From NCBI GenBank assembly GCA_965113315.1, contig OZ220375.1: DNA of 64,000 nucleotides; one strand, given 5' to 3'. This DNA is from Podarcis vaucheri. Taxonomy: Eukaryota. A program made the position numbers and the translations under genes. Of the stretch, positions 5,082 through 59,200 are shown piece by piece. Numbering within the stretch: the stretch's first letter is position 1; each line of letters starts with the position of its first letter. The notes below the pieces were generated by a model, which was not told the origin of the DNA, did no database searches, and worked only from the letters and a program-made list of their open reading frames with translations.

Positions 5082-5211
5082 AAAAGGGAATGGAAGAATA
5101 TTTGTGTATATATGCACCCAGGACACGTATAAATTTGAGGAGAAGATGCCCACAACATTTCATCACATGACTAAAAAGAAACTTTTTGGTTTTCCTTAAA
5201 GAAGTGAACAA

Positions 5212-5756
5212 ACATTGCAGAATCACTTTAACCAGAGTGTGGGACTTCACAGCTGGCAATGCAAATTTGGCTGTGAGCTGGGAGGAAATAGGCCTGGGGA
5301 ACAGTATGGCTATGAGGTGAAGAACTTCATCAGCCTGGACAAGAAGACCCTGACCTGGACAGTAGTCGAGGTGCCAGCCCAGGTGACCAAGGGGGAGTGG
5401 GAGTGTGAACGCAATGCCACGCTGACCTGGAAAGGCTACTTAGAGGAGGAATGTATGGAGTAATTTAAGAAACTATAGCAAGATAGCCAGAGGTGAAGGT
5501 GACCAGGAAGGCTATGAAGGTTTGAAGACCTTCCTTTGCCAAGCCCACAGCTTCTACACCAAGGGGATTGATGTCAACTGGGTGGAGGATGGGGAGATCT
5601 GACAGGAGGGCAGCTTCTGTGGAGTGGTCACACCCAACTCAGAAAGGACCTAATACACTTTGCTTGGAATCAAGACAGACCCCAAGGAGAGGGACCACTA
5701 CTTGTGCCATGTGGAGCATGACAGCCTAAAGGAGCCTCAGGACATGGCTCAGGATC
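5212..5756 (+). pseudogene. MHC class I heavy-chain pseudogene, intronless (end of alpha1, alpha2, alpha3)
   Basis: TLQNHFNQS-VGLHSWQCKFGCEL..YGYEVKNFISLDKKTLTWT..AQVTKGEWE..WKGYLEEEC gives the alpha1 end (NQS glycosylation site) and alpha2 with both Cys. PEVKVTRK..TFLCQAHSFYTKGIDVNW..TPNSERT*YTLLGIKTDPKERDHYLCHVEHDSL gives the alpha3 IgC1 domain. Stops at 5461, 5600 and 5651 plus frameshifts; no introns between domains. Confidence 0.88.
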
Positions 5757-5761
5757 TCCCA

Positions 5762-6120
5762 CCCAGCAGCGGAGCAAACCGTTTGGGTGCCCTGTGCCCA
5801 GGGGTGGGGCCAACCGCCCATGGGAGCAGGGCCAGCTGCCCGTGGGGTGGGGCAAGCTGGGGTAGAATGCTCTGTGGGGCCTCTGAGGAGTCTGCCTGCC
5901 TCCTCCTACTCAGCCGCCCTACAGCTGAGGGGGAGGCAGCAGGTGCACCCTTTGGGGCAGCGTTGAGCCTGCGGGTGCCCAAGCCACCACGTCACTTCCA
6001 GGAGAGACATGTGGCTCGGGCGCGCTGCAGGCCCTGTGGTGAGTGCTGCCCAGCATTTTGTCACTCCTTCAGTGGTGACACCTAGGGTGGACTGCCCCCC
6101 CACCCCTGCTCCCAGCACCA
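5762..6120. mobile_element. GC-rich non-autonomous DNA-transposon-like (MITE) insertion at the 3' end of the MHC copy
   Basis: Abrupt GC-rich block starting CAGCAGCGGAGCA, with only a weak complementary TGCTCC near 6108. It resembles common squamate MITEs; no clear TSD. Confidence 0.35.
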
Positions 6121-18979: not shown

Positions 18980-21449
18980 ATGCTACTCATTCTATTGCTA
19001 CTCCTAACTCCTCACACAGTTCAGCAAAGTATGATATGTAGCCACAGTTCAGAAAGAGATCTGGTAATGTCTGAGAAATATGAGCGAGGGGGTCATACTA
19101 TTGGTGGTGTTTTTTCATTCCGTATAGCTGCATTTGAATTCAACAGCTTTCGGGAATCTGCTGCTGATGCTGGTATTTATCTGACAAGGTAAGCACTATG
19201 CATTTTTTAGAAATATAAAAAATGTCCTTGGCTACATTTGAATAAATACAAAAAAGCCCCTCACCCCACACTTGCACACGTGTTTCAAAAATTAATTGGT
19301 ATCTATTTTTTTATTATCTATTTAATTTTCAAAGGGCTTAATCACATGAAGATGCCCTATAATTCTCTGGTTCATATTTTTAAAAAATAAAATAGAAATC
19401 ATTTTAATATGATAGCTGATTCAGAGAGTATGCCAAAATCTACATGCAAATATTCTCAGAAAGAGAATGGCAGAGCCACTGACCATCCTTCAAAAAGCTA
19501 AACAACTTTGGCTGATCTCTTAAAAAAAGCTCCACCCCAGGCGCCAGCAGGGGTTGCTATGCTGCCATCTGTGCTGGATCCAAACGGAAGAAGCAATATG
19601 GTTTTGGTTGTTAATGCATTGAGCCCCTCACTCCTATGTTCATGTTGCATCTTATGTCTATATCCCAAAGACACTACAGTCTCAGCTGACATCCATTCCA
19701 AGGAAACTGAACACTAGAAAAGCATTTACTTCGGCGTGGGGGGGGGTGTTAGTGAAATTTTGAGACTTTGTGCAATGAATAAGAAAAATATATATTTTTT
19801 TATGGCTCATTGTTTATTGAATACTTATACTAGCAATTCAATAACTCAAAACTATATACGTATGCAAATGTCATTACACTTTGATGTTCACATTTGAATG
19901 CAATTAAGGTTGCATGGTCAATGTAATCTCATCTTTTTAGTTCTGCCTCTTTCATTGGAAACATGTATTAGAAATACTGTACTGACATGTCTCACATTTT
20001 TTCTTTAAGTAGTTGCCAGCTGAAAAATTTGTAACTATCAGTCCAATCCATGTTGTAGGATACTACCTAAGAATATCCAACATTTCCTGGCTTTTTGGTT
20101 TGCTATTATTGAAGTCAACAAGAATCCAAAGCTTTTACCTAATGTCACCCTGGGTTTCCGTCTACTTGACAACTTCTGCGATGGAAGACTCACTTATTTC
20201 ACAACAATGCAGTTGCTCACATCAGGAGGTGTTAGGACCAATAATTATAACTGTGATACAAAGAATAGTGTCTTGGCCATTGTTGGGGGTCTTGCATCTG
20301 AAAACTCCATTGAAATATCAAATATTGCGAGCACCTACAAAATGGCTCAGGTATGGACTTTTGGATTGGGAAGAGAGGTCATGTACTTTCAGAGGACTAT
20401 TCATTCATCAAAATGATTCATTTATTAAACATTCATCCTGATTTGCTTAGACAAAGCACTGTAAAGGTTAGATTTGCAGTCTTAATTGAGCATTCATTCT
20501 GATTGCAAGATAATAAGCATTCACCCTCATTTCTTTGTGCACATTTTATATGTGTTGCTGCTAATTGTATGTATACACCCAAACACATGGTTTTTCTTAT
20601 ATTGTTTATATTGGCTGAAACAGAATTTCATGTAAGCAAACAACCTGCAAGGCTTTCAAGAACATTTGCAAAATTTTCACTATATTTTCCTCCCCCATCC
20701 TGGATGTTTTAGCTCTTTTCAATTGATTCATTGCAACTATATATATGCTTGTGCTTATAATTACCTTAGCAGATCTTACAAAAGATAAGTGATAGAGATG
20801 GCTAGAGATGGATACATGGAGATAGCTAGACAGCTAGCTAGACTTTCGTCAAAGGCAAAACAAATGCCATGGATCTGCACAAAATCAAAACCCTTTGAAA
20901 TTAACAACATATAATATTACATTAGAGATCAAAGGGCCAGTTTCATTTTTTTTGTTTCCTTACCATTTTGAGTCAACAGAAGTTAACACTGGGATTCATG
21001 GTCTTACATGTCTTGCAATTTAAGCCCCTACTTGGACTCAGAGGGCAAGCTGTGGGTGAGAACTCCCCTCCCCCTGAGTATGGTTTCTTGATTTATGAAC
21101 AATGTATCATTCTTTTGCACATAAATGTCCATAGGGAACAATCCCTCCTCCATGGTAAAGTATTATCCTCAGATTCCCAGCTTTCCACTCATCCACACTT
21201 TGTCACGTGCCAAGAAATAATGAGTTCGAGTTTTCTGCTTGTCCCACACTTTCTAGGTGCAGGTGTGACTGGTTTTGCTCTTGCTTTACCACTTTTACTG
21301 GGAAAACCCACTCTTTAGAGATAAATTGGAGCAAATGTTAATCCAGAGAAAACCTGTCTGACATTTGCTCCAGATGAGTGATAAAGATCAAGTTTTCTCT
21401 GGGGGAAAGTGGTAAGGTGAGGTCAATTCTTGATGAGCCCTTTGGGGGG

Positions 21450-21483
<34 letters not shown>

Positions 21484-24400
21484 TTTTCTAGTATTTTTAG
21501 AACCTGAGATGTGAAACAAAATGTAGACATGAATCTCCTTGTGTGTGAGAAATTAGCTTTATCCTTTTTTTCCAGCATTGCTCCCCCAATCTTGCCTCCC
21601 ACTCAAAATTCCTGTGAATGCCCATGTGTATATAATGAACCAGCTATTGATCTTTTGTGTCTATTCTGAGTGGCAGCAGCTCAGCAAATTTTTAAAGAGG
21701 TGTTTGTCGTGAGTCACTTGAACTTTAGATGCACAGGACTGAAGATGGTACCTTCTGAACATTCAGTGACTATGTACCATCAAACACATCGAAATGGCCC
21801 TGTGCAACTCTTTTGCAACAGAGGATTGGCAGATATAATCCCAGTTTGCTTTCAGGCATCTTCTAAACATGGTATTATTCAGGAAGACCTTTTGAACCTG
21901 CAAATCTTTGCCAGCCATATTTTACATTTATAGATACTTAAATACTACATACCCGGGACGCGGGTGGCGCTGTGGGTAAAAGCCTCAGCGCCTAGGGCTT
22001 GCCGATCGAAAGGTCGGCGGTTCGAATCCCCGCGGCGGGGTGCGCTCCCGCTACTCGGTCCCAGGGCCTGCCAACCTAGCAGTTCGAAAGCACCCCCGGG
22101 TGCAAGTAGATAAATAGGTAATGCTTACCAGCGGGAAGGTAAACGGCATTCCGTGTGCTGCGCTGGCTCGCCAGATGCAGCTTTGTCACGCTGGCCATGT
22201 GACCCGGAAGTGTCTCCGGACAGCGCTGGCCCCCGGCCTATAGATGTGAGATGGGCGCACAAACCCCAGAGTCTGTCAAGACTGGCCCGTTCGGGCAGGG
22301 GTACCTTTACCTTTACCATTAAATACTACATATTAGAATTTGTTAAATATAAGACCAACCTAATTAACTTTAGTCTTTTCCAGTTCCAGTAGTGAATATG
22401 TTTATGTGGCTAACTTTCTCTGTTTGTTGTTACAGGTAAGGCTTTACTAGTGAGTGGTTGTACTAGTGAGTACAAAGCTACCAATGTAGTATGCTTCATC
22501 TATGGGTATTCACTAGTAATGTCTAATACAGGGATCACCAACCCATGGATGCCCTTGAGCCTCTTTCTTTCTTTCTTTCTTTCTTTTCAAACACTTTCAT
22601 TGGCTTTTAATAATGACAGGCAGATATAAAAGAAATAAGTGAAATTAAAAAAGGTTTCAAAAAGATTAGTTGACACAATTGTCATGTAATGCAGCTATGT
22701 GATCTACTGAGTCAATAACTAATCATACCGAGTGGCAAAGAATGTGTGGCCCATAATTACAAAGGGTTCCATGGTCTAAATGAAAACATTTTATTATTAT
22801 TGTTATTTCAAAAAAGAAAGTAAAAAGTAATCTTGAACTGTAGCCAATGCTGACACTTACATAGACCTGTAGTACCTGATGCTTCTGAGCCACTGCATTT
22901 GTGTATAAAATAAAATTAGGCCAAGTGGCAAAGAAGCGATCCCTGGGCTTTCATTGGGGGGGGGGGGTAAGTCTCTAGTCCTCCTTGAAAACGAAATGTT
23001 TTGATCTCAGGACATGTCTTTCTGAGCGCTTCCCAGTTACTGCACTTTTCCTGCTTCTACTTTTTTAATGCCCCCTCCCGCTTTACTCTTAAAGATGCTC
23101 TTCACACACAATAGAAATGTGTTTGAAATGAGCATGTCTGGTCAGAGCTATAGTGCCTACAATGCTGTTCATGTCATAGCACATGTTTTACATGAAATGC
23201 ACTTATCCACCTCCAAGCACATAAAGTTGGGGGAAAGAAGCAGATTCGGACTGAGGAATGTGCAGCAGCAGGTAACATGTTTCAATATTTATTATTCTTT
23301 TATTGATAGATGATGCTGATCCTGATGGTGATGATGTGACCAAAGTCAATTTGCCCAACTTGATGCCCTCCCTAATTTGAACTGAAAATCCCATCATCCT
23401 TGATCATTCTCCAGGCTCTAAGATTTCTCCAACAATCCCTACCATATGATGTGATTGTTTTGTTTTGTTTTAAAAAAGCTACACCATATGTTAAGAAACA
23501 TCAGGTTTAACAATAGTGCTGGGGAAGAGATATTTTTTAATGAGCACCAGGAGTCTACAACTGGATATGATATTGTGAATTGCTATGCGTTCCCTAATGG
23601 ATCCCTCATTCGAGCTAAAATTGGAATAATGGACTCCCATACATCAGTACACAAGAAGTTTATCATTAAAGATAATGCAATAACTTGGAACAGTTGGTTC
23701 AACAAGGTGGGTTATTTTAGTCATTAATATTATATGCACAAATAACAAAGTCCTTGTGTCATGCTTCATAAGCCATAAGTTCTGCACCACCCACATGCAA
23801 GAGGAGACATCAGCAGTGTAAGAAGTTCCCCCAGATATCTAGAAAAGTTGGGGAGCCTCTAACCCCCTGCAACTGGCACTTGGGACTCTCACTAAGCCAC
23901 ACTCCTATTTCCTCTGCTTTGTACCCTCCTTTAGAGTTTTTGCCTCACTAGAATGTGCCCTTGAATGCCCACCATCTATTATACAATGGTGTGAGGAAAT
24001 CACATTTGAGCATATTTTCTATAGACATCAATTTCACTTGAATACGTACTTCGACATCTAGAGCGTTTATATGAATTCATACTTTTAACTTAAGATGCAT
24101 GTTCTGATGGTTACTATGTCCACAAAATAACCTATAGTGTTTTATTGTTGTTGTCTTTTTATTAGTATTTTTAAATTTTTCTTTCGTTCTTCACTTTCAG
24201 TGATTTCCCCCCTTCCTTTTCTTACTTAAATATGAAAATAATAGAAGGAAGGAAGGATAGCATGGATAAATTTGCCCCCAACAGAATTGTGATGTGTCAT
24301 TCCTTAGTCATATGCCAGTAAATAGTGTGAGCTTTATTTGAGTCAGGGGTAAGAATGTAATACAACTAGTGCAATAGTCTCTGCTGTTCCCTATGTCACT

Positions 24401-26189
24401 ATTCACAGGATTACACCTATCTACCCCAAGTGAAGGATTAGCATCCTCGACCAGCAATACTTTAATCACCCTATTTTTCTATTTAGGCCCTGCCCCGTTC
24501 TGTGTGTTCTGAAAGCTGCCATCCTGGATACAGCCAGAGAGTTCAGGAGGGTAAACAAGTCTGCTGCTATGATTGCACTCCATGCCCAGAAGGGATGATT
24601 TCTAACCAGACAGGTAGGAAAGTCCTGGAGTCCCATAGTTATTTCAGCACTAAGTATGGGGCTGGGTGAAATTTCTTTCTCCACTTCGCAACCCAATTTG
24701 CATGAAGCGAAGGTGTGTGGACAAGTGGGCAAGAGTTAGAGTGATGGAAAGAAAATGCCCAGGCTCTGTAACATTTGGCTGGGATGCCCCTGAGAATGAG
24801 ACTGCATGATGATGTATTGCCATTCCCAGCACTATAAATCTGACTTTAAAAAGAGAAATCTTCATACAAACTACCATAAGTTATAGCCTGAAGAAGGGAA
24901 GAGCATGAATGCCAGCTAATTCCTCCGGGTAAGCAACAAAGTTAAAATTCAGCAAGCCTAGCATCAGTGAAGCTGAAAGCCCCTCCCCACAAAAAGAAAA
25001 CAACTACTGGTAAATATTAAAAACAACTAAATATTAAAAACTTTGTATCAGGGCTACTTAAGGTGGTGTAGTCAAGATATACTTGAACTCCAGGTCCCAT
25101 CATCCCTGACCATTGGTCATGCTGGCTGGGAATGATGGTAACTGTATTCTAACAATATCTAGAATATTGGCTACCCCTGCTCTATATATATTTCTGATGG
25201 GCTTTGCCCACAAAATCCTTGTTCCCTGATTCTGCTTTGATTTCACCTGGTATCTTACATCACTGACAGTTTCTACTCTTTTAAAAGATGCAGATCATTG
25301 TGACAGATGTCTAAATGAGCAACGCTCCAACCAAGAACGGAATCAATGCATTCCAAAAGTAATTCACTTCCTCTCATATGAAGAACCTTTGGGAATGGCT
25401 TCAGCTACCTGTTCCCTCATGTTGTCTTTAGCCACTGCTCTGATACTTCAAATATTCATTAAGCATCAAGACACTCCAATTGTCAAAGCCAACAACCGAG
25501 ATATCACCTACATTCTGCTTGTCTCTCTCCTGTTTTGTTTCCTCTGCCCCTTGCTCTTTATTGGTAGGCCAAGGAAAGTGACCTGCCTTCTCCGACAAAC
25601 AGCATTTGGGCTCATCTTCTCTGCTGCTGTTTCTTCTTTGCTGGCGAAAACCATCACTGTGGTCCTGGCTTTCAAAGCCACACAGCCAGGAAGCAATATG
25701 AGGAAATGGCTGAGGAAAAGAGTAGCCAACTCCATTGTCCTGTTCTGTTTCCTTGGCCAATTTGTAATCTGCACTGTATGGTTAGGAGCAAACCCTCCCT
25801 TCCCGAGCTTAGACATGCACTCTGAAAGTGGACAGATCATAGTTCAGTGTGATGAAGGATCAGTCACTATGTTTTATTGTGTCCTCAGCTACATGGGCCT
25901 TTTAGCCATTATCAGTTTTCTGGTAGCTTTCCTTGCAAGGAACCTGCCAGATAGTTTTAATGAAGCTAAATTTATCACTTTCAGCATGTTGGTGTTTTGC
26001 AGTGTTTGGGTCTGCTTTGTTCCAACTTACCTCAGCGCCAAAGGGAAATACATGGTAGCTGTGGAGATCTTCTCCATCTTAGCCTCTGCTGCAGGTTTAC
26101 TTGGCTGTATCTTTTTTCCAAAATGTTATATTGTCATTTTGAAACCTAGTCTTAACACTAAAGGGCATCTCATAAGGAAATCCGACTAG
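18980..26189 (+). CDS. Vomeronasal type-2 receptor (V2R, class C GPCR) with truncated exon 3. Predicted exons: 18980-19188, 20059-20350, 23095-23271, 23479-23706, 24487-24613, 25288-26189 (644 aa if spliced this way)
   Basis: Signal peptide MLLILLLLL; exon 2 [26 protein letters not shown]; exon-3 tail [16 protein letters not shown]; exon 4 [17 protein letters not shown]; Cys-rich [21 protein letters not shown]; 7TM with [24 protein letters not shown] and [10 protein letters not shown]. All introns are GT-AG with compatible phases. Functional status is uncertain. Confidence 0.85.
21447..21483. repeat. (GA)n microsatellite in V2R intron 2
   Basis: Read directly from the sequence. Confidence 0.9.
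21952..22318 (+). mobile_element. Sauria SINE (Squam1), full length and young
   Basis: tRNA-like head with A box (GTGGCGCTGTGG) and B box (GGTTCGAATCC), an (ACCTTT)n tail, and a 14-bp TSD TTAAATACTACATA (21938-21951 / 22319-22332). CpGs are largely intact. Confidence 0.9.
25050..25180. repeat. Short palindromic squamate interspersed repeat (non-autonomous DNA-transposon-like); similar copies near 10780-10915, 35650-35770, 38650-38780, 39600-39700 and 62190-62330
   Basis: Recurrent core CCCATCATCCCTGACCATTGG..GCTGG..GATGG in several degenerate copies across the window. Confidence 0.5.
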
Positions 26190-29395: not shown

Positions 29396-29663
29396 TCATC
29401 CTATGTTCACACGCTTTGTGTGAATGTTGCCCAAGGTGAAGGGCAGCCCTTGGCCTGAAATGTATTTGCTACCCCTGCCCTAGGGTATGACACATAGATG
29501 AAAAATAACTTATTGTTACATTACAAATGTAATCCACAGCTGTCCTGTGAGTGTAAACACCATAACATGTATTATTAATATCTGTCTGAAGCTAGGTTTT
29601 TGCTACTTGTTATTAAGACTATATTATATTGATTTTATTTTGAAGGTCATTAACAGATACAGT

Positions 29664-30600
29664 ATGATCTCAGAAAACCAAACTTCTGTGAATGAATTCA
29701 TCCTCCTTGGTTTCTCTAATCCTCAAAGGCTTCAGACTTTTCTCCTGGCACTCTTCCTATTGGCTTACATCTTGGCCATATGTGGGAACATCACAATTAT
29801 CACCATTGTTCAGTTACATCGGAAGCTCCAAACTCCCATGTATTTATTCCTAAGCCATTTGTCTTTGATAGAAATTGGACACATGACAAACACTATCCCC
29901 AAAATGTTGTTCGACTTCTTAAAAGACAGGAAAGTGATCAGCATGGTTGGTTGCTTCACACAGCTTTACTTCAACCTCTTCCTGGGCCTGACAGAGAACT
30001 TCCTGCTGGTGCTTATGGCTTATGACCGCTTCTTAGCCATCTGTAACCCTATGAGCTATACCACAGTGATGAACAATAGTCTGTAAATCGCTGATTCTTG
30101 GGTGTTGGGTGGGAGCTTTCCTTGCTCCCTTGCCCCCAACCATTTTTCTCGCTATGCTGGATTTCTGTGGGCCCAATATAATCAACCATTTCTTCTGTGA
30201 TCTTGCCCCAGTGCTGACTCTTCCTTGTAGGGGGAAATCATTCATTGAATTTTTCTTTTTCATGTCCATTTCTTCAATGGTTTTGGGTTGCTTTTGCTTG
30301 ATTACAGTGTCTTATATCAACATCATTGTGGCTATACTGAGGATGCCATCCAGTGGGGGAAGGCGTAAAGCCTTCTCCACTTGCACTGCCCATCTTAGTG
30401 TAGTATTAATATATTATGGCTCAGTCATCTATATGTATGTGAGGCCTTCAGCAAGGGATATCCATAATACAGACAAAGTAGTATCTGTCTTCTATTGTGT
30501 GGTGACACCATTTCTGAACCCTTTCATCTACACCTTGAGGAATACTCAGGTCCATGAAGCATTCAAAAGCATAATAGTAAAGAGGAGAGTATTCTATTAA
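29664..30600 (+). pseudogene. Olfactory receptor with a single 2-bp frameshift (paralog of 34474-35406)
   Basis: AACAATAGTCTGT at ~30078 versus AACAATAGAGTCTGT in the paralog. Restoring AG gives an open 312-aa OR. Confidence 0.88.
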
Positions 30601-32070: not shown

Positions 32071-34473
32071 AAAGAGTGTATAAGGTTCAGAAAAATGAGT
32101 ACAATTTTAATACATACTTTTTGTACATTCTTTCAAAAATACCCAAGCAAATGGGTTGGGATAGAACTATGATTGGGCACTGAAATTGGACAGAATTAGG
32201 GTTCTGGGTATTTCCTTAATAACAAGAATAACAAGCCAAGAGAGACAAAGAAAAATCCATTATGTGAATCACAATGGGTGGATGTTTCATAAATTGGCTC
32301 CCATGAGCCAATTGTGGCTCTGCATGGAAATATAGAGATATATTTTTTAAAAAAAATACTACTGGGAGAAAGCACAACATGCATTCCAGTAGGAAAACAC
32401 CATCTACAAAGTAAGGACATCATAAAACAATCACCTTATTCATTTTTTAAGAGTGCTTTAAGTAGATTGCCAAACAATGCTGATGGACTTTAGACTATTT
32501 ATACTCCTTCCACCTTTCTTCAAGTGGGAAATAGTTGTTTTCATTTTATACTTAACAATATTTAGCAATTTATTGAGTTCAGCTTCTATTTTTCTTTTTA
32601 TGCAGTATTTTCTGAAAGGAATTAAATGCACCGTCAGATATCTGCCATAGTTACAAGGTTTGTGTGTGCTCAGATCATTCATCTGGTATCTGAGAAACAT
32701 GTAAAGATGATCCTCCTGTAGTTTTGGTTTTAGGGGGATCCAGTAGATAGGATTGATTTCAACATCTTTTAAGTATTATTTTAGTTCAAAGTGAGAAGAA
32801 AATAAGGGTCAGATTGGGCAAGAAAATTAGGTAAGAGTTGAAAATATGTAGCAAGAGGCCACTTTCTATAATTTCTCATAATATCAAGGACCTTAAAAGG
32901 ATATGAGCAATGATATGTATGGTCTGTGAATGGTCGGGACCAGTAGAGGGTACTTGCAGATCTTTCTGTTTGAGTGGAGAACTATAGGAAAGTTACACTT
33001 TTGGGGTCATCAGCACCATGACTAAGCAATGCTTGATGTCTCTAGTTGATTGCTCCAAAATTGATTTTAAGCTTTTTGAGCTGTTTCTGCTGCTTTTTCC
33101 ATTGTGTTGCCATACATTACCTCTGAAGACCAGGACATGTCAGGAATTTTCCTGATGTATGGCAAGCCTACATGAAAGTCTTTTGATGTTCTGCTCAAAT
33201 AGGCAAAGGCAAAGATAGGCAAGGACCATTCTAGAGTGGTAGAGTATATGCTTTGGATGCAGAGATCCTTGGGTTCAATGTGGCTCATCTAGTCTAGCAT
33301 CCTGTTCTCACAGTGGAAGAAGACCTGAGCACAACAACTCTCTCCCGTCCTATGGTTTTCAGCAACTGGTATTGAGAAGCGTACTGCCTCTGACATAAAA
33401 GTTTCATGTTCCCAAACCCTTTATGTTGAAAATAGGTTCCAGAGTTGAATGTTGGTCATTACTCAAAGAATCTCCAAGGTTATGGCCATAATCAAAAGGC
33501 ATGGAATAATGCACCATTAGTTATTCTATTTCTCAGCAGACTGTGGCTTCTGGCTTAGGTGATAGAGAGAGGGCAATGTTAACAGACAGCAAATTGTCAG
33601 TTACTTAATTATGCATTTCATTACCTTCATTATTATATTATTTTCACTATTTCAGATTTCAGGCTCAGGCACCAAAATGTGTTAGTCTGGACAGTGGAGA
33701 TTTCAAGGGGACTGCTTGTAGATGTGTAGATGAAGTAATCCACCCTACTGTTTGTAGGGTGGATTACTTCACAGAGGGCTAACTGAAACAAAACAATCAT
33801 ACTACCTAGTGTTGTAATGTAAAACTTGGGTCACCCATACTTGCACCTGCCAAGGAGCTGCTTTTTATTTATATAATTCCACAGCCCTATAAGCTCTTAC
33901 AGTCACCATCATGCTGTGAGGTCACTGATTCAGCAATGTAACCCCACATAACCTGCCCTGCTCCATATATATAGCTGCATTATCCTCAAGTAGCTTTGAA
34001 CCATTTGTGATTGTACCATCCAGCTATGGGGTAACTCTATGTTGAAATGCAAGTTTATAAAGTGTGATTGTTGGATATGAACCATATTATTTTAGTGTAT
34101 CTCACTTACTTGTTTTTGCAGGTTGATGTGCAGCAATTAGCAAATCAAACTCTTCACAGCTTGGATACAATACCCTTTAGCATCTAATAACAATCAAACT
34201 GCTGAATCAAACTGCTGTTAAAAGTTTGGGTGCTGGATTTTTTGGTTGGGGGGCGGTTATCAGGACGGTATCAGTTTTAAGTGATGTTTTTCTTCCATCA
34301 CAGATTGAGACAGACCTAGCAAAAAAGGGGTGGAAACCCTGGGTGAACTCTCTTGGAAGTATTAACACTGCTAAGAGGAATAATTGTGAGTGCTTAAGTG
34401 ATCAAACCTATCTCTTATATACACCTAATTTTTTCTTTCTTTTTTTCTTTTTAATGTCTTAACAGATAGAGGT

Positions 34474-35406
34474 ATGATTTTAGAAAACCAAACTTCTGTG
34501 AATGAATTCATCCTGCTTGGTTTCTCTAATCCTCAAAGGCTCCAGAAATTTCTCCTGTCACTCTTCCTTTTGGCATACGTTTTAACCATAAGTGGGAATG
34601 TCACAATTATGACCATAGTCCAGCTTCATCAGCAACTCCAAACTCCCATGTATTTATTCCTAAGTCATTTGTCTTTGATAGAAATTGGACACATGACAAA
34701 CACTATCCCCAAAATGTTGTTCGACTTCTTAAAAGACAGGAAAGTGATCAGCATGGTTGGTTGCTTCACACAGCTTTACTTCAACCTCTTCCTGGGCCTG
34801 ACAGAGAATTTCCTGCTGGTGCTTATGGCTTATGACCGCTTCTTAGCCATCTGTAACCCTATGAACTATACCACAGTGATGAACAATAGAGTCTGTAAAT
34901 CACTGATTCTTGGGTGTTGGGTGGGAGCTTTCCTTGCTCCCTTGCCCCCAACCATTGTTCTTGCCAGGCTGAATTTCTGTGGGCCCAATATAATCAACCA
35001 TTTCTTCTGTGATCTTGCCCCAGTGCTGACTCTTCCTTGTGGGAAAAAGTCATTCATTGAATTTTTCTTCTTTGTGTTCACTTCTTCAATGGTTTTGGGT
35101 TGCTTTTTCTTAATAATAGTATCTTATGTCAACATCATTGTGGCTATATTGAAGATGCCATCCAGTGGAGGAAGGCACAAAGCCTTCTCCACTTGCACTG
35201 CCCATCTTAGTGTAGTATTAATATATTATGGCTCAGTCATCTATATGTATGTGAGGCCTTCAGTGAAGGACATTCGTGATTCGGACAAAGTAGTGTCTGT
35301 CTTTTATTGTGTGGTGACACCATTTCTGAACCCTTTCATCTACAGCCTGAGGAACACCAAGGTCCATGAAGCATTCAAAAGCTTAATAGTAAGGAGGAGA
35401 ATTTGA
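34474..35406 (+). CDS. Olfactory receptor, intact, 310 aa (family 6/11-like)
   Basis: LQTPMYLFLSHLS, MAYDRFLAICNPMNY, KAFSTCTAH and PFLNPFIYSLRN; acceptor TTAACAG just upstream. Confidence 0.96.
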   Translation: MILENQTSVNEFILLGFSNPQRLQKFLLSLFLLAYVLTISGNVTIMTIVQLHQQLQTPMYLFLSHLSLIEIGHMTNTIPKMLFDFLKDRKVISMVGCFTQLYFNLFLGLTENFLLVLMAYDRFLAICNPMNYTTVMNNRVCKSLILGCWVGAFLAPLPPTIVLARLNFCGPNIINHFFCDLAPVLTLPCGKKSFIEFFFFVFTSSMVLGCFFLIIVSYVNIIVAILKMPSSGGRHKAFSTCTAHLSVVLIYYGSVIYMYVRPSVKDIRDSDKVVSVFYCVVTPFLNPFIYSLRNTKVHEAFKSLIVRRRI

Positions 35407-51439: not shown

Positions 51440-52621
51440 AACAACCGCCCCTCCCTTTACTGTGTTTTATAGTATATTGTACACTGCTGTGATATTCTCT
51501 GTTAAGTGGTCTGTAAATCTGATAGTATCTCCAAGCTTGCTGAGCATTTAAAAAGGAAAGGAAAAACAAGTCTGACATCATCAGAACTAAGCTTGCACTA
51601 TCAAGCCTGTTTAGTAGTGTTGCCTGTCCTAGGGAACACCTTCCCATCAGAAGTCAAGAAAATAAACAACTATGTGACTTTTGGAAGACACATACGGAAT
51701 TTTTCAATGTCTGATTTTTTATTGTGCTTTTAATATTTTGTTGGCAGCTGCCCAGAGTGTCTGCAGCAACCCAGTCAGATGGGTAAGATGTTAATCATCA
51801 TTATCTCTATCTAAGAGAGTGATATGTTATAGAGGATTTAATGTTGTGCCCAATTTGGAAATACTCAGAGAGGAGCCTTAAGTTATGTATGGCTGATGTA
51901 AATACATTGGAACAAGCCTAAGTTTTAAATGTTTCTCCCTTTGTTCATTTAATTACCCCAGCTCCCCAAAAACCTAATAAATTATTTTTTTTCTGTCTCT
52001 AGATAAAAATCATTTTACGAAGCTAATAAAATGGATGCCAGTAATGAAACTGCTCCATCTGAATTCATCCTTCTGACATTTTCAAACAGTTATGAATGGT
52101 GTTTCCTCCTTTCTGGATTTCTCCTCATCACATATCTCTTCACACTGATAGGGAATATTCTCATCATCACTCTTGTCTCCATAGAACCAAGCCTTCAAAC
52201 TCCCATGTACTTCTTCCTCTGTAACCTATCCCTCCTGGACATCTGCCAGACTACAACCACTATTCCACAGATAATAGTGCACCTGATTTCAGGAAGAAAT
52301 GCCATCTCATATGAAAGATGCAAGGTTCAACTCTCTTTCTTCATCTTATTCATTGGTACTGAGACCCTTCTGTTGGCTGCCATGGCTTATGATCGCTATG
52401 TTGCCATCTGCAATCCTCTCCGCTATAATGTGGTCATGAATTACAGACTCTGTGCTCAACTGGTGTCAGCTTCTTGGTTCACAAGTTCACTCAACACCAC
52501 CATTCACACCCTTATCACATTCCGCCTGCCCCTTTGTGGTATGAATAAGATCAACTACTTCTACTGTGACATCCCTCCTCTTGTAGCTATCTCCTGTGGG
52601 GACATCTCTAGCAGTACTATT

Positions 52622-53007
52622 TGTGGCTTTTTGTTTATATCCGTGACTCCCGCTAATTGATTTGCGAACCTCAATTAGCAATTTATGGCCGCCCGGTACA
52701 CTTCTGCTGCGGCTTTCCGTCACGACTCAGCAGAGCTTCGCACAGCGGTGTAGAACTGTCACGTAGCTTGTCTCAGCTCTCAGACAAACACACAGAGTCC
52801 AGGTTTGTCTATTTACAGCTTTTATTCCAACATTTCTTAGGAATTTCCAGGACTATTTGCAGCCATGACAAAACTGCATCCTTTCCCCACAAAATACCGA
52901 GTGGGACTGACAAACACTTCCCAAGCTCCTCCCAAGCTTCCAAAACTGACGTCAGAATGGTGTGGCATCCTGGGAAGAACTTAACCCGTTAAGTTCCAAA
53001 CCCAACA
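52622..53007 (-). repeat. 3' LTR of the copia element
   Basis: Direct repeat of 55862-56247, with 2 substitutions by eye. Confidence 0.95.
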
Positions 53008-55669
53008 CCCCCCTTTGCCGCACATTCTGACAAGACCTTTTTGAGTTCAACACCTTACCCTTTGCCTTGTGCTCCTTCCCAGCATCTTTCCCAGGCACCT
53101 GTTGAACCCTTTCAACACTCCCAGAATCACACTGTGCGAATCTCGCCCACGCACATGTTGCCTGGTATCTTTCAGGTGGAATGCCCTTTGTTGTGCGACT
53201 AGACCTTCTGGGCACAAACTCAGACGTTACCTCTGACTCACTGCCACCAGGAAATGTGTCCTCAGCATCACGGGATTCCCCCTCTGACTTAAAACGTTTT
53301 CGAATCCTCTCCATTACACTCACAGGGGAACTGGGCTCGCTTTTGGCCTCCTTTTTTACAACTTGTGGAGAAACTACCGATACCTCCTCCTGTTCCTGAC
53401 TTTGGTCAGTTACCTGATCGTCATCATCAGACTCAGCTTCTTCTTCCTCCCCCTCATAATCTTCCTGTTCTGAGAGACACTCTGAAAGAACATCATGCTT
53501 GACAGCAGCTTGTGTCTTTTTATCCTGCTCATAGAACTCAGCGTGTTTACTGATCAGCAACTTACTCTGATCACCTGATGGAAATGCAAATCTCCATGCA
53601 CTTGCTGTTGGCTCATACCCACAGAAGATCATTTTTCGGAACTTGGATCCATCTGGCCCCTGCAAAACAGCAGGTACCGGCACAGACGCACGTGACCCGA
53701 ACATACGCAAAAAATGAATCTGGGGTTTCCTGCCATGCAACAACCCAAACGGTGTGTCCCCTACCATGGAATTGTAGGTGCGATTCCAGGTGAAGCTTAC
53801 ATACTTGATTGCCTCCAGCCAAAACCTTGGAGGTAACCCAGAGTCTTCCAGCAACACCTGTGCAGTTTTAACCAGAGCCTGACATTTGAGCTCTGACACT
53901 CCCCTCTCATTGGGTGAAGTCACTGTGTGACGTATCCCTTTCTTGTGAAAGTACTTCTGCAAAGCAGAACCTGTAAACTCAGCTCCTCTGTCACTTGTGA
54001 CAGCTTGCACTTTGGTGGAAAACCTTTGTTCCACCCCCTCAATCCACCCTTTGATCAGCTGTGCTGCATCATCCTTGGATTTGAGGCCATGTATCCAGGA
54101 ATTCTGAGTAAAATCCTCCTGCATCGAGAGCAGAAACCTTGACCCTCCCAGACTTGGTTCCTTTACAGGACCCCACAAATCTATGTGAATCAGTTCAAAA
54201 GGCCTTGTTGTTATCCTTTCAACCTTTGGATAACTGCATCCTTTTACCTTTGCCAGTTTGCAAGTTTCACAACTTACAGCATGTCCACATTCTGAGATAT
54301 TACAACCATTGGAAACTTCTGGCAGCACCTGTAGTTCTTCAAGAGAACTATGAGCTGTACGTGTATGCCAAGCATGTACGCATGAATCATGATTGGGAAT
54401 TGTAGCACGCAGTGCTTGTGCTTTCTCAACCTTCCCACCACCCTCCAGAGACGTTTTAAGAATGAAGAGATCATTTTGCCCCTTTTTAACCTTGGCAAGC
54501 ATCCTCCCTCCTTTGGAGATTGTGCACACATCACCCTGAAAACAAACCGTAAATCCCTTTTTCAGTAAATAAGGCACAGATAAAAGACAGTGTTGCATCC
54601 CAGGAACAGTACAACACTCCAACGTTTCCTGTAAAACACAAAAATGCAAATTTACAGCATTAGTCATATTTCTTTTCTGTCCATTTGCAAACAGTACAGT
54701 TTTCCCGGCAGGAATTGCCGTGCAGTTCCACCTCTCGACTGCAGGTGTCTCTGGAATCAAATTGCGATTAGCTGCAGAGTCAATAACAAAACTTAGCTCT
54801 GTCCCACAGCTGTCTTCAGCCAACGCCAGACTAGCCGTGATCTGATACGTCTCCTCCTGGCACCTGGCACGTCCACCAGCCTCAGTCTCACGCCTGGTTG
54901 TTTTTCCAGACCGGTTGCCATGGAAACTCGACTGGTTCCCATGAGAAGTGTCCTTGAAGCCTTCCTGTGCAGCTGCTCTCTGTGGGCAGTCTCGGCGTAC
55001 GTGGTCAGCTGACTTGCAAATGTAGCAACGACGAACTTCAGTGGAAAAACACTGCCTGGGGCTCCTCCCAGCTGGCCTCCTTCTCCTTCTTCTGGAAAAG
55101 CACTCCTTGCCAGATCCGCCCCCCCTGAACTGCCGCTCCATTCCAGCAGATTCAGTGGAAAACTTTTCAAACTTGCCTTTGGAACTTTCCGCCCCCCCGA
55201 CTTGCTCACTAGCACTCCTTGAGGCTAAATCATCAGGAACAGGGGCTCCAGCCATCTCTAGGCTTTCAGCTTCCATCTGCCCTAGGCCTCCTGCTGAGCC
55301 TTCACACAGACGTTTCAGCACACTCCAGGCCTCACACGCAGATTCAATGCTTTCCAGGTGATGTTGCAAATTAGCATGAACACCTGCTCTCAACATGCAG
55401 ACCTCAGCTCTCATAGCCTTCTCCCTCTGCATTTTCTCCTCCAGAGAAACAGACTTCAGCCTTCCTGCATCTCTGTCCACCAGTTGCACTGGTTCCCTCT
55501 GGGAAATGTCCCAAACCTCCGTGGCTATAAACCACGCTCTCACCCATCTTGCCCAGGTATTCCACGCTTGGGCGGTGAGTTCCTCAAGCTGTTCAAACGG
55601 AGCTTGAATCACCTCCTGGCCATCTGCCATCTTCTCACGCTCTCCCAAATCGCCCCAAGCTGTACTCAC
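52952..55669 (-). CDS. Copia Gag-protease-integrase polyprotein, 905 aa, no reverse transcriptase
   Basis: CCHC knuckle CYICKSADHVRRDC; protease FVIDSAA; integrase HHCC WHTRTAH..CETC and core IHIDLWG / TSDRGAEF / GVSE; SH3-like MIFCGYE; PRRSSR..PPERY. The ORF then runs into the 3' LTR with no YVDD motif. Confidence 0.9.
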   Translation of the reverse strand: MSTAWGDLGEREKMADGQEVIQAPFEQLEELTAQAWNTWARWVRAWFIATEVWDISQREPVQLVDRDAGRLKSVSLEEKMQREKAMRAEVCMLRAGVHANLQHHLESIESACEAWSVLKRLCEGSAGGLGQMEAESLEMAGAPVPDDLASRSASEQVGGAESSKGKFEKFSTESAGMERQFRGGGSGKECFSRRRRRRPAGRSPRQCFSTEVRRCYICKSADHVRRDCPQRAAAQEGFKDTSHGNQSSFHGNRSGKTTRRETEAGGRARCQEETYQITASLALAEDSCGTELSFVIDSAANRNLIPETPAVERWNCTAIPAGKTVLFANGQKRNMTNAVNLHFCVLQETLECCTVPGMQHCLLSVPYLLKKGFTVCFQGDVCTISKGGRMLAKVKKGQNDLFILKTSLEGGGKVEKAQALRATIPNHDSCVHAWHTRTAHSSLEELQVLPEVSNGCNISECGHAVSCETCKLAKVKGCSYPKVERITTRPFELIHIDLWGPVKEPSLGGSRFLLSMQEDFTQNSWIHGLKSKDDAAQLIKGWIEGVEQRFSTKVQAVTSDRGAEFTGSALQKYFHKKGIRHTVTSPNERGVSELKCQALVKTAQVLLEDSGLPPRFWLEAIKYVSFTWNRTYNSMVGDTPFGLLHGRKPQIHFLRMFGSRASVPVPAVLQGPDGSKFRKMIFCGYEPTASAWRFAFPSGDQSKLLISKHAEFYEQDKKTQAAVKHDVLSECLSEQEDYEGEEEEAESDDDDQVTDQSQEQEEVSVVSPQVVKKEAKSEPSSPVSVMERIRKRFKSEGESRDAEDTFPGGSESEVTSEFVPRRSSRTTKGIPPERYQATCAWARFAQCDSGSVERVQQVPGKDAGKEHKAKGKVLNSKRSCQNVRQRGVLGLELNGLSSSQDATPF

Positions 55670-55861
55670 AAAAGCTCCTCTGGCGTGGAGAAACGATTCC
55701 TTGCTGCTCTCAGCTCACAGCTTTCAGCATTCAGCAACAGCGTCTTTCAGCTTGCTTGCTTGCTTGCTTCCGTGCTCCTCTGCTAGACACCGCAGATTTC
55801 TCAGCTCCCGGCAGCTCTTCCGTGACAGTTTTACGATAGGTGATTTAGGTTACCCATAACC

Positions 55862-56247
55862 TGTGGCTTTTTGTTTATATCCGTGACTCCCGCTAATTGA
55901 TTTGCGAACCTCAATTAGCAATTTATGGCCGCCCGGCACACTTCTGCTGCGGCTTTCCGTCACGACTCAGCAGAGCTTCGCACAGCGGTCTAGAACTGTC
56001 ACGTAGCTTGTCTCAGCTCTCAGACAAACACACAGAGTCCAGGTTTGTCTATTTACAGCTTTTATTCCAACATTTCTTAGGAATTTCCAGGACTATTTGC
56101 AGCCATGACAAAACTGCATCCTTTCCCCACAAAATACCGAGTGGGACTGACAAACACTTCCCAAGCTCCTCCCAAGCTTCCAAAACTGACGTCAGAATGG
56201 TGTGGCATCCTGGGAAGAACTTAACCCGTTAAGTTCCAAACCCAACA
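55862..56247 (-). repeat. 5' LTR of the copia element
   Basis: Direct repeat of 52622-53007; adjacent to the PBS. Confidence 0.95.
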
Positions 56248-59200
56248 CTATTGCCCTGCTGGCTACTAGTCCCATAGTGGGGTTTGGACCAGGTATGTGT
56301 GTCCTCCTTTCCTATAGTCACATCATCTTTAGAGTTCTGAAAATGCATTCTTCAGTTGGGATGAGGAAAGCCTTTTCAACTTGTGCTTCTCATCTCACTG
56401 TTGTGCTGCTCTTCTATGGTGGCTCTATCTTTCAATATATCAGGCCCTTCTCCAGCTACTCACTGAACAAGGATAGAATGATTGCCCTCTTTAATAACAT
56501 TCTTTCCCCTTTGTTGAACCCACTAATTTACACCCTCAGGAACAAAGATGTGAAGGGGGCATTACAGAAGAGAATGGTGAAGAAAATGTTGTCCTGAAAT
56601 AGACTGATGTCAATAAATCCTTGGATTTATCTTGTAGTAGTGCTGGGAAATTGAATGTGGGGGCTTGGAACACTATAGCTAGGGCTTGAGATTTCAGTTT
56701 TACTTTAAAGCCTAAGTGTTGTTCCAAATATTCAGTTTAATATCATGCCAAAATCTTTCCTCCCCACCCTTCCCCCCAAAAGAGAAAGATGGTTACATTT
56801 TTCTGTTTCATATACAGGGCACCTGAAAATTTGTTCATCATTTCAGCTTGAGGCTTTACCTCGTGGTGGGTACTCCTGGCACTTTGCAAGGATGAAGGGA
56901 GCAGACCAGTGGTAAAATGCTCTGTAGAGTGTACATAGAACTCAAAATTCAAATACCCTCTTCAACTGTTTCAAAAGTAAAGTAAGCACATCAGAAACCA
57001 TCCATAGCTCGATATCTGTATTTCACTGAATTTTTCTCTGCCCTTTAAAAAAATGTCAAATACTTTTTTTCTAATTGATGGGGAATTCTTTCTTTCTTTC
57101 TTTTGCACAGTACTATTTCATATCTTTCCAAAAATATAATAATGGAAAATCTCCAACACTTTTCTCTGACTTATGATACTGTTATTATTGGCTTAGATAT
57201 TGTAGCATACCAGGGCTTATCATTACATACTTGATCCCCCCCCCCCAGTTCACATTACTTTCTAAAAGTGTCTGCTTTAGATAGACGTAATCTTTCTTTG
57301 GGTTTTTTGGCACCAACCGAACAACATCTTTCTGGAAGCCTTTTAAGTCAAGATGTCTATTGGGATTTATTATTTTAAAAAAACATTTTTGTTTTGTTTA
57401 GTTTTATTGCTTGTTGTTTCCTGCTCTTAACTTCTTCAAGAGGAATCACAAGATAGAAATTTTAATCATCATCATTATCCAGATATATGTAGTGATAATG
57501 TTTTAGAAAGAACAAATTAGATGAATTCTGTGTGTAACCTTTCAAACCTGGAATTTTTATTCCTTGCCTACATTTCTATTCCTGCTTGACTAACCTAAGT
57601 CCCACTGATTTTAATAGGCTTCCCCCAAGCATGACCAAATTTGGATCCAGCTCTGTAATTTTAAATTGATGTGCAAGTGGTATACTTGGAAACAGTTGTA
57701 TTTCATCAAAAATGACACATACTGGAAGTATGGAAATAGAATTGCTAATGACTTCTATTTCATGTATTTTCTCCAAAGATTTAATCCTTTCAGGAAAATA
57801 AAAGGTTAATACAGATACTGTGGCAACATCTTCCAATTAAACATTTGAAAACATGCTGTTGTTTATTACTCATTTGATAAGACAGGGGGAGCAAAAAGCA
57901 ATTTATTCATAAATAGTTGGAATTTGTTTGTGACATTCTGGCACGGTTGTAAGATCAATTCAGCTACACAATTCCCCCCCCCCCTTAGACTTCATTTTGA
58001 TGCATCATATTATGGAATAGAACATTGTTGGCATCCATCTGTCTTGAGAGACTATGGAGTGTGCCTTAGGGGGTGAAGTCAAACTGCTGCATTAGTGGCA
58101 CCAAAGTAACCTCCTTGGGGTGCAAGCCAGGGCAGTGTGTATGGAGGTCCTGGGCTGCCCAGATGACATGGCTCCATGCCATTGACCTCACTGATGTGGT
58201 CCAAAGTAAAGCAGAGTGAAACATTTGGCACCAGCCTGGCTGCAGGAGTTGCCAGAAGGAGGCATGCAAGGTACCATCCAATCGCCTTAGGGATTCCAGT
58301 CTGGCTTTGTGTAGGGTTTACTCCTTAATATTTTATTCTCCCATAAATTAATGGCTTAGGATAAGAGTTTTCCTTCTCCTATAAGGACTACCATCCCAGG
58401 TTGATGAGCCCCATCTGCTTCATCCACAAATATACTTTTGTTTTCCTCTGTTTAATCTGTGGTGAATACATTTGTAAGCTCTGTAAGACTCTTAACCTGA
58501 AGGTGGGTGGGAATCTCACAGGGCAAAATGGCCCCAAACTCTTCAAAGTTTCTAAGTGTCCTCACAGTACCTTTATCAACTTTGTTTTCAGTGAAAAATG
58601 TCCAAATAATGTGAATCATTAAACTTATACCAGTGGGAATAGTTTCTTTTTGTTTTTTCTACACTCCCCTTGGTTCTCCACCACCAGACACTTATACACA
58701 TGCCACCACACTGGGGAGGCCCAGCTAGCATGCTTGTAAATATATAAAAGCAAACACTGAAAGATAATAGGACAGTTTGCAATCTTTGACTTACTGCCAT
58801 GAACTGCAACACAAAGAAAATATTCAGTAAGAATGCCCCCTCACCATCTGGGAATCCAAGATTTAAACACAGTTTAAAGGATTCTAATTGGTAAGCCTTG
58901 CAGGTAACTCAGTCTTATGTAAATGCATCTCAATGCAAATATGATGTTTAATGCCAAGGTGATACTAAACATACTTCAGACCGTCTTTTCTAAAGATAAA
59001 TTGAACCTAAGAAGAGCCATGTCAAATCAGAGTACAGCACCATTGTAGTCTAGTATCCAGTTCTCACAGTGACCAGCCAGATACCAAAAGGCATACTCAG
59101 AGCAGAAGCTGAGTCCAACAGCAATCTCCGAACTTGTGATCCCCATCAACTGGCATTCAACGGCACACATTGCCTCTGGCAACAGAGGCAGAAAGATAGT

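Follow-up and report, generated by a model that had tools for sequence, protein, structure and literature searches.

The DNA examined here, a stretch of 64,000 nucleotides from the lizard Podarcis vaucheri (the window), carries a vomeronasal type-2 receptor gene (V2R) that lies alone among olfactory receptor genes on a contig, C34, which carries many V2Rs. The surrounding olfactory receptor cluster occupies both strands between positions 2585 and 61233. One of its members (29502-30597) is split over two frames, and a near copy at 34429-35403 is intact. Another (52007-52657 and about 56190-56594) is split by a young LTR retrotransposon inserted in it at 52622-56248, with a 920-aa open reading frame on the minus strand (integrase, zinc knuckle and SH3-like matches), terminal repeats identical at 385/387 positions and a 5-bp target duplication. 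A broken MHC class I-like sequence is found on the plus strand at 5200-5900 (Pfam MHC_I positions 79-166, E 2.3e-17, with a weak C1-set match close after), and its stops, frame changes and little intron spacing are as in a processed or decayed copy.

Both the six-exon structure, which is that of V2R genes as described in PMC4316634, and orthology to named V2Rs were found for the gene at 18980-26189 (Table 1). The splice and translation check of the window gives a six-exon coding sequence of 1,935 nt, corresponding to 644 amino acids and one terminal stop, with no internal stop and no second lesion in the remaining exons. AG precedes and GT follows at every expected place in all six exons, the intron phases along the model are 2, 0, 0, 0 and 1, and the interval is free of N letters, all three N stretches of the window lying elsewhere. 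An earlier note on this DNA had given the same exon lengths, GT-AG sites and coding length, an interval without N-gap and survival of the last ~155 nt of exon 3; its model was confirmed, the frame being open and the sites canonical, and ortholog alignment puts the remnant at 154 nt. Retention of the frame is nevertheless little evidence by itself, because exon 3 is a phase 0-0 exon whose skipping is equally stop-free. An alternative internal AG at 23144-45 is also in frame and free of stops (627 aa), which brings the splice routes without a stop to three (mini-exon, exon 3 skip and internal AG), while the nearby AGs at 23009-10, 23035-36 and 23113-14 lead to stops by residue 170-192.

Table 1 Features of the V2R locus in the window.
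Feature	Position	Strand	Description
V2R exon 1	18980..19188	+	209 nt; ATG and hydrophobic N-terminus (putative signal peptide); agrees with ortholog N-termini
V2R exon 2	20059..20350	+	292 nt; N-terminal portion of flytrap lobe I; 96% identity to Zootoca ortholog
High-copy repeat in intron 2	21955..22317	.	extreme depth in 4/4 runs; the break is about 800 nt away
Old pyrimidine tract of intron 2 with its AG and a 56-nt AG-free zone	23037..23094	+	candidate cryptic acceptor; other samples align throughout
Mini-exon (predicted)	23095..23271	+	177 nt; 23 nt of former intron and 154 nt of exon 3
Former intron, would be exonised upon use of the cryptic acceptor	23095..23117	+	23 nt; unmatched in ortholog proteins
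Deletion junction	23117..23118	+	879 bp absent; X3 and X5 contigs carry them exactly there
Exon 3 remnant with native donor	23118..23271	+	154 nt; ortholog homology restarts at 23118
V2R exon 4	23479..23706	+	228 nt; end of flytrap; splice check and ortholog alignment
V2R exon 5	24487..24613	+	127 nt; cysteine-rich domain; Pfam NCD3G E 6.6e-17
V2R exon 6	25288..26189	+	902 nt; end of cysteine-rich domain, 7TM, stop; Pfam 7tm_3 1-251/251, E 1.3e-86

Comparison with other lacertids shows what an undamaged copy of this gene looks like. A search with exon 2 retrieved two proteins among 173 candidates, the better being an 840-aa V2R of Zootoca. The ortholog cluster has eight members, all of which were inspected and six of which were aligned to the window. 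A whole exon 3 is present in six members (Zootoca twice, Lacerta agilis, P. muralis twice and P. lilfordi). The other two, one from P. raffonei and one an earlier P. muralis version since superseded by an 840-aa model, have 415 aa and start in exon 4, and the deletion junction occurs in none of the eight. The window gene is 93.1-98.5% identical to the six aligned orthologs, P. lilfordi being closest, and the gene is retained in three lacertid genera by its ortholog models. Ortholog exon 3 has 284 codons (852 nt), and the window is without residues 139-371 in the numbering of the P. muralis model, a lesion of 233 of 840 residues. The full-length orthologs rule out an ancient, paralog-specific architecture. 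The short P. raffonei model (XP_053217387.1, P0005) may reflect incomplete annotation, as in the earlier P. muralis version, or a lesion of its own.

In the genome itself, exon 2 gives short matches only, and the best other match to exon 6 reaches 76% DNA identity among the best 40 scored of 861 candidates. A query with the whole protein is dominated by 7TM exons. The lost 233-aa stretch, used as query, had no near match anywhere in the assembly among the scored matches, the best being 45%, and the paralog matches were stop-free in 150 of 150 cases (the best 150 of 843 candidates). On these comparisons, the gene is a single-copy V2R without close paralog in a genome with hundreds of V2Rs.

The deletion itself was followed in read-derived contigs from 4 of 23 sequencing runs (X1, X3, X4 and X5). 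In X1, a single contig spans 22595-25124 with 0 differences from the window and a depth of 31.6, as compared with 29-37 in flanking unique contigs. X1 is possibly the assembly's own sample and so tests for assembler error, not a second animal. The X3 contig, from a distinct sample and study with the same species label as X1, matches to 23117, carries 879 extra letters and resumes at 23118 (contig positions 556 to 1436), and the contig of X5, a different species, does the same (contig positions 707 to 1587). In X4 the match ends at 23118 with 288 letters unmatched beyond. The deletion is thus absent in all three other samples compared. These three runs diverge from the window by 1.21%, 1.08% and 1.24%. 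With values so nearly equal (1.1-1.2%), X3 stands no nearer to the window than other species do, whatever its label. The deletion is real and not a misassembly, the X1 contig crossing the junction and the missing segment being on no other contig. The earlier note had held that a private deletion, together with neutral evolution of the remaining exons, would speak against a retained receptor; as to the first half of this, the other samples and ortholog models examined are indeed without the deletion. By this comparison, the deletion is young and confined to one lineage or sample. The unbroken, full-depth junction contig suggests that X1 is homozygous for it, although contigs can drop variants.

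Arithmetic and the ortholog proteins together indicate that the 879 bp would comprise about 181 nt of intron 2, including the native acceptor, and 698 nt of exon 3. An internal deletion that kept the native acceptor was ruled out, as the 23 nt after the AG are unlike the conserved exon-3 start of 40/40 paralogs, and the other samples have the 879 bases after those 23 nt. An imperfect 10-bp inverted repeat (9/10 matches) flanks the junction, with arms at 23101-23110 and 23118-23127. The high-copy repeat of intron 2 is skipped by the X3, X4 and X5 contigs and is apparently absent there; intron 2 may thus have undergone another change specific to the lineage, apparently unrelated to the deletion.

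Pfam recovers the class C 7TM domain (PF00003) over its full profile in exon 6 and the nine-cysteine domain (PF07562) on exon 5, with its remainder in exon 6. The two-lobed Venus flytrap (PF01094, ANF_receptor) is incomplete: positions 4-349 of 353 are matched in the ortholog, whereas the window has only 4-76 in exon 2 (E 1.7e-10) and a weak match to 267-297 in the exon 3 remnant (E 0.0089, below cut-off), positions of about 77-266 being missing. In an alignment to solved CaSR chains, ortholog residue 139 corresponds to V165 and residue 371 to about P407. The equivalents of A168, S170, Y218, E297 and C236 are deleted, and those of S147, C101 and C131 are retained in exon 2. In CaSR, S147, A168 and S170 in LB1 and E297 in LB2 are given as amino-acid contacts, with Y218 as a listed contact, and the C236-C561 bond is described as fixing LB2 to the cysteine-rich domain (Geng 2016, PMC4977154); according to a review, this bond passes flytrap movement to the 7TM (PMC11252437). 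Ortholog C210 aligns with C236 and lies inside the deleted stretch, and the cysteine linking flytrap and cysteine-rich domain is absent; four cysteines are lost overall, the C236 equivalent and a later cysteine pair among them. Both flytrap lobes are assembled from discontinuous segments, and later lobe I sequence is presumably also within the deleted stretch. A literature search found no printed residue boundaries for the lobes.

The deletion has taken over half of the flytrap, the ligand-binding domain. Since the ligand residues of lobe I, the core of lobe II and the C236 equivalent are all lost, what remains is best read as a lobe I that is incomplete and has one cysteine unpaired, and not as a folded half. 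By analogy with CaSR, an in-frame product is predicted to have no flytrap ligand binding and no coupling to the 7TM, and it probably folds poorly. For the full-length P. muralis ortholog, single-sequence AlphaFold2 gave a model too poor to use (mean pLDDT 39.3). The lost stretch is more than the hinge and most of lobe II that the earlier note had assigned to an exon 3 of ~800 nt, since lobe I contacts (A168, S170) and C236 go with it, and the picture of a "half-flytrap" drawn from that description cannot be upheld, lobe I itself being incomplete.

The 644-aa product depends on the candidate cryptic acceptor. Its AG at 23093-94 is preceded by 18 pyrimidines in 21 positions, the highest count of 25 AGs in 22900-23271 and one reached by 3 of 40 real paralog exon-3 acceptors. 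It is, however, an AAG site, A at -3 being found in 3/40 of the real acceptors. When these 40 are used to train a crude composition model, the site scores -1.2 and the median real acceptor 3.9, but the acceptors of exons 2, 4 and 6 of the gene itself are equally low in this model. The two measures disagree, pyrimidine count calling the site strong and composition calling it weak. A strong tract with a phase-0 AG and a 177-nt mini-exon had been put forward before: the frame and the tract stand, while the composition score and the AAG context tell against strength. The tract and AG are old intron sequence, because they lie upstream of the break and are aligned in the other samples; at 23046, 23059 and 23082, which are listed as variant, those samples have pyrimidines. 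An acceptor arising after the deletion was ruled out on the same alignment. The deletion instead brought an old intronic AG close to the exon 3 remnant.

How unusual such a placement is was estimated from 29,600 simulated breaks at overlapping positions in 40 related paralog introns, with an in-frame, stop-free AG required. An AG within 25 nt that was equally good by pyrimidine count (18) was found for 75/29,600 breaks (0.25%; range 0.25-0.6%), a looser threshold typical of acceptors (count 15) was reached by 3-6%, and about 11% were as good by the composition model. The rescue acceptor is a modest coincidence, singled out post hoc in a family with hundreds of members; a retained product keeps a small probability because of it. 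At least two C-to-T changes in the tract belong to the lineage of the window (expected 0.25, p about 0.03, post hoc; among 40 of 187 variants), and at least four lineage-specific substitutions fall in the 200 nt that lead up to the break (22918-23117; expected 0.9; among the same 40 of 187). The tract changes are not specific to the tract, because this local cluster spans the 200 nt. In the coding exons, the lineage shows at least four amino-acid-changing substitutions (positions 23, 49, 263 and 393) and at least two synonymous ones (codons 85 and 147), which are too few to show constraint. At a lineage change of about 0.45% per site, a dead gene too would be expected to have its frames still open. 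The youth of the lesion accounts for the intact state of the other exons, which is no evidence of selection since then.

These observations are best explained, and we regard this as very probable, by a young loss-of-function allele of a single-copy lacertid V2R, a pseudogene in the making, that carries a real 879-bp deletion. With the native acceptor and most of exon 3 presumably gone, any transcript would either be spliced past exon 3 or enter it at an AG close by, the one at 23093-94 yielding the 644-aa form; from an in-frame product the ligand-binding loop, the core of lobe II and cysteine pairing with the cysteine-rich domain would be missing. We infer from CaSR that the lesion is disabling; in a family so very large and redundant, drift or relaxed selection would let the allele persist. 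Points that speak against a null allele are the rescue acceptor, which is better than most sites arising by chance, the two C-to-T changes in its tract, the junction contig in X1, which suggests homozygosity, the lack of a second lesion, and the ability of class C receptors to signal without an ectodomain (PMC12799464). Of the two outcomes that had been offered for this gene, a very recent pseudogene is supported by the absence of the deletion in other samples and ortholog models; a retained half-flytrap receptor is not supported, the short form being unconserved and incomplete in lobe I. An assembler that dropped 879 bases could account for their presence in other samples, and X1 may not represent a second animal; yet a separately assembled contig crosses the junction at full depth without differences, no N gap is present and the segment is on no other contig. 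This artefact is largely refuted already and hardly credible.

Perhaps the allele is translated to no purpose: its transcript would escape nonsense-mediated decay, and neurons choosing the gene would make a dead or dominant-negative receptor, whose effect would be incidental and without adaptive role. Three stop-free splice routes favour this, as does a snake study in which a V2R pseudogene was among the transcripts probed in vomeronasal sections and all those tested were detected (PMC3590772), but the competing AGs that lead to early stops weigh against it, and we consider it unlikely. Very unlikely, and somewhat more so than this by-product, is a selected short receptor in which the cryptic acceptor is used and a 644-aa surface protein serves as 7TM-pocket sensor, constitutive signaller or dimer modulator. 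Its open frame, a strong pyrimidine tract 23 nt from the break, which one of the two models makes a rare chance event, and a retained interchain cysteine equivalent (CaSR C131), cysteine-rich domain and 7TM would all fit; headless CaSR retains Ca2+ sensitivity with positive modulators (PMC12799464), and truncated taste-mGluR1/4 are proposed receptors (PMC12547497). However, the deletion is conserved in none of the three other samples or full ortholog models, the tract predates it, the remnant with its unpaired cysteine is unlike a cleanly headless construct, and the lineage changes are too few to show constraint. Just as little credence is given to a new architecture caught at its birth, in which the deletion fell 23 nt behind an in-frame acceptor already in place and the lineage now produces and retains a V2R without flytrap, signalling via cysteine-rich domain and 7TM or altering the tuning of a partner V2R. 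The favoured reading thus remains the young null allele.

As a null allele, the locus adds one minor case to the turnover of chemoreceptors in lizards. A single-copy gene kept in three lacertid genera would be lost, and this loss would amount to a natural knockout that could be linked to a scent phenotype. Repertoire counts or scans that rely on an intact 7TM would score the allele as functional. Should the short product turn out to be expressed and under selection, nature would have supplied a V2R without flytrap, on which ligand sensing by a lone V2R 7TM could be tested.

The closest known relatives of the allele are the lacertid orthologs named "vomeronasal type-2 receptor 26-like" (XP_034957487 in Zootoca, XP_028559470.2 in P. 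muralis, XP_033024496.1 in L. agilis and CAI5790469.1 in P. lilfordi), which are the same gene with the same exon junctions and domains and are 93-98.5% identical over aligned residues. The window allele differs in that it is without 233 residues and would gain 8 intron-derived ones. Neither this allele nor in-frame V2R exon-3 deletions appeared among the papers listed by literature searches; supplementary V2R tables of lizard genomes could list the locus. As in squamate and rodent V2R pseudogenes, one member of a large tandem family is lost; V2R repertoires of lizards and other squamates are described as large (bioRxiv 10.1101/551978), and 39 putative pseudogene contigs are given for a snake vomeronasal transcriptome (PMC3590772). 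Those pseudogenes were called by stop codons or frameshifts, whereas here a large deletion leaves the frame open. Taste-mGluR1, taste-mGluR4 and the engineered headless CaSR resemble the allele as class C receptors without much or all of the ectodomain, for which residual signalling is proposed or shown (PMC12547497, PMC3318850, PMC12799464). The taste-mGluRs, however, come from intact genes as transcript variants with a truncated N-terminus, and the headless CaSR is a construct, while the window allele is an internal genomic deletion in one lineage or sample, known here from DNA alone. Conservation of the short form across individuals and species, as expected of a functional truncated receptor of the taste-mGluR type, is not seen, the full exon being present in other samples and ortholog models. 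A splice variant of CaSR, itself a class C receptor closely related to V2Rs, is likewise without an exon of the flytrap (exon 3); as reported in PMC5003915, it is truncated at 153 aa and would miss the membrane, whereas the window allele keeps both its frame and its 7TM.
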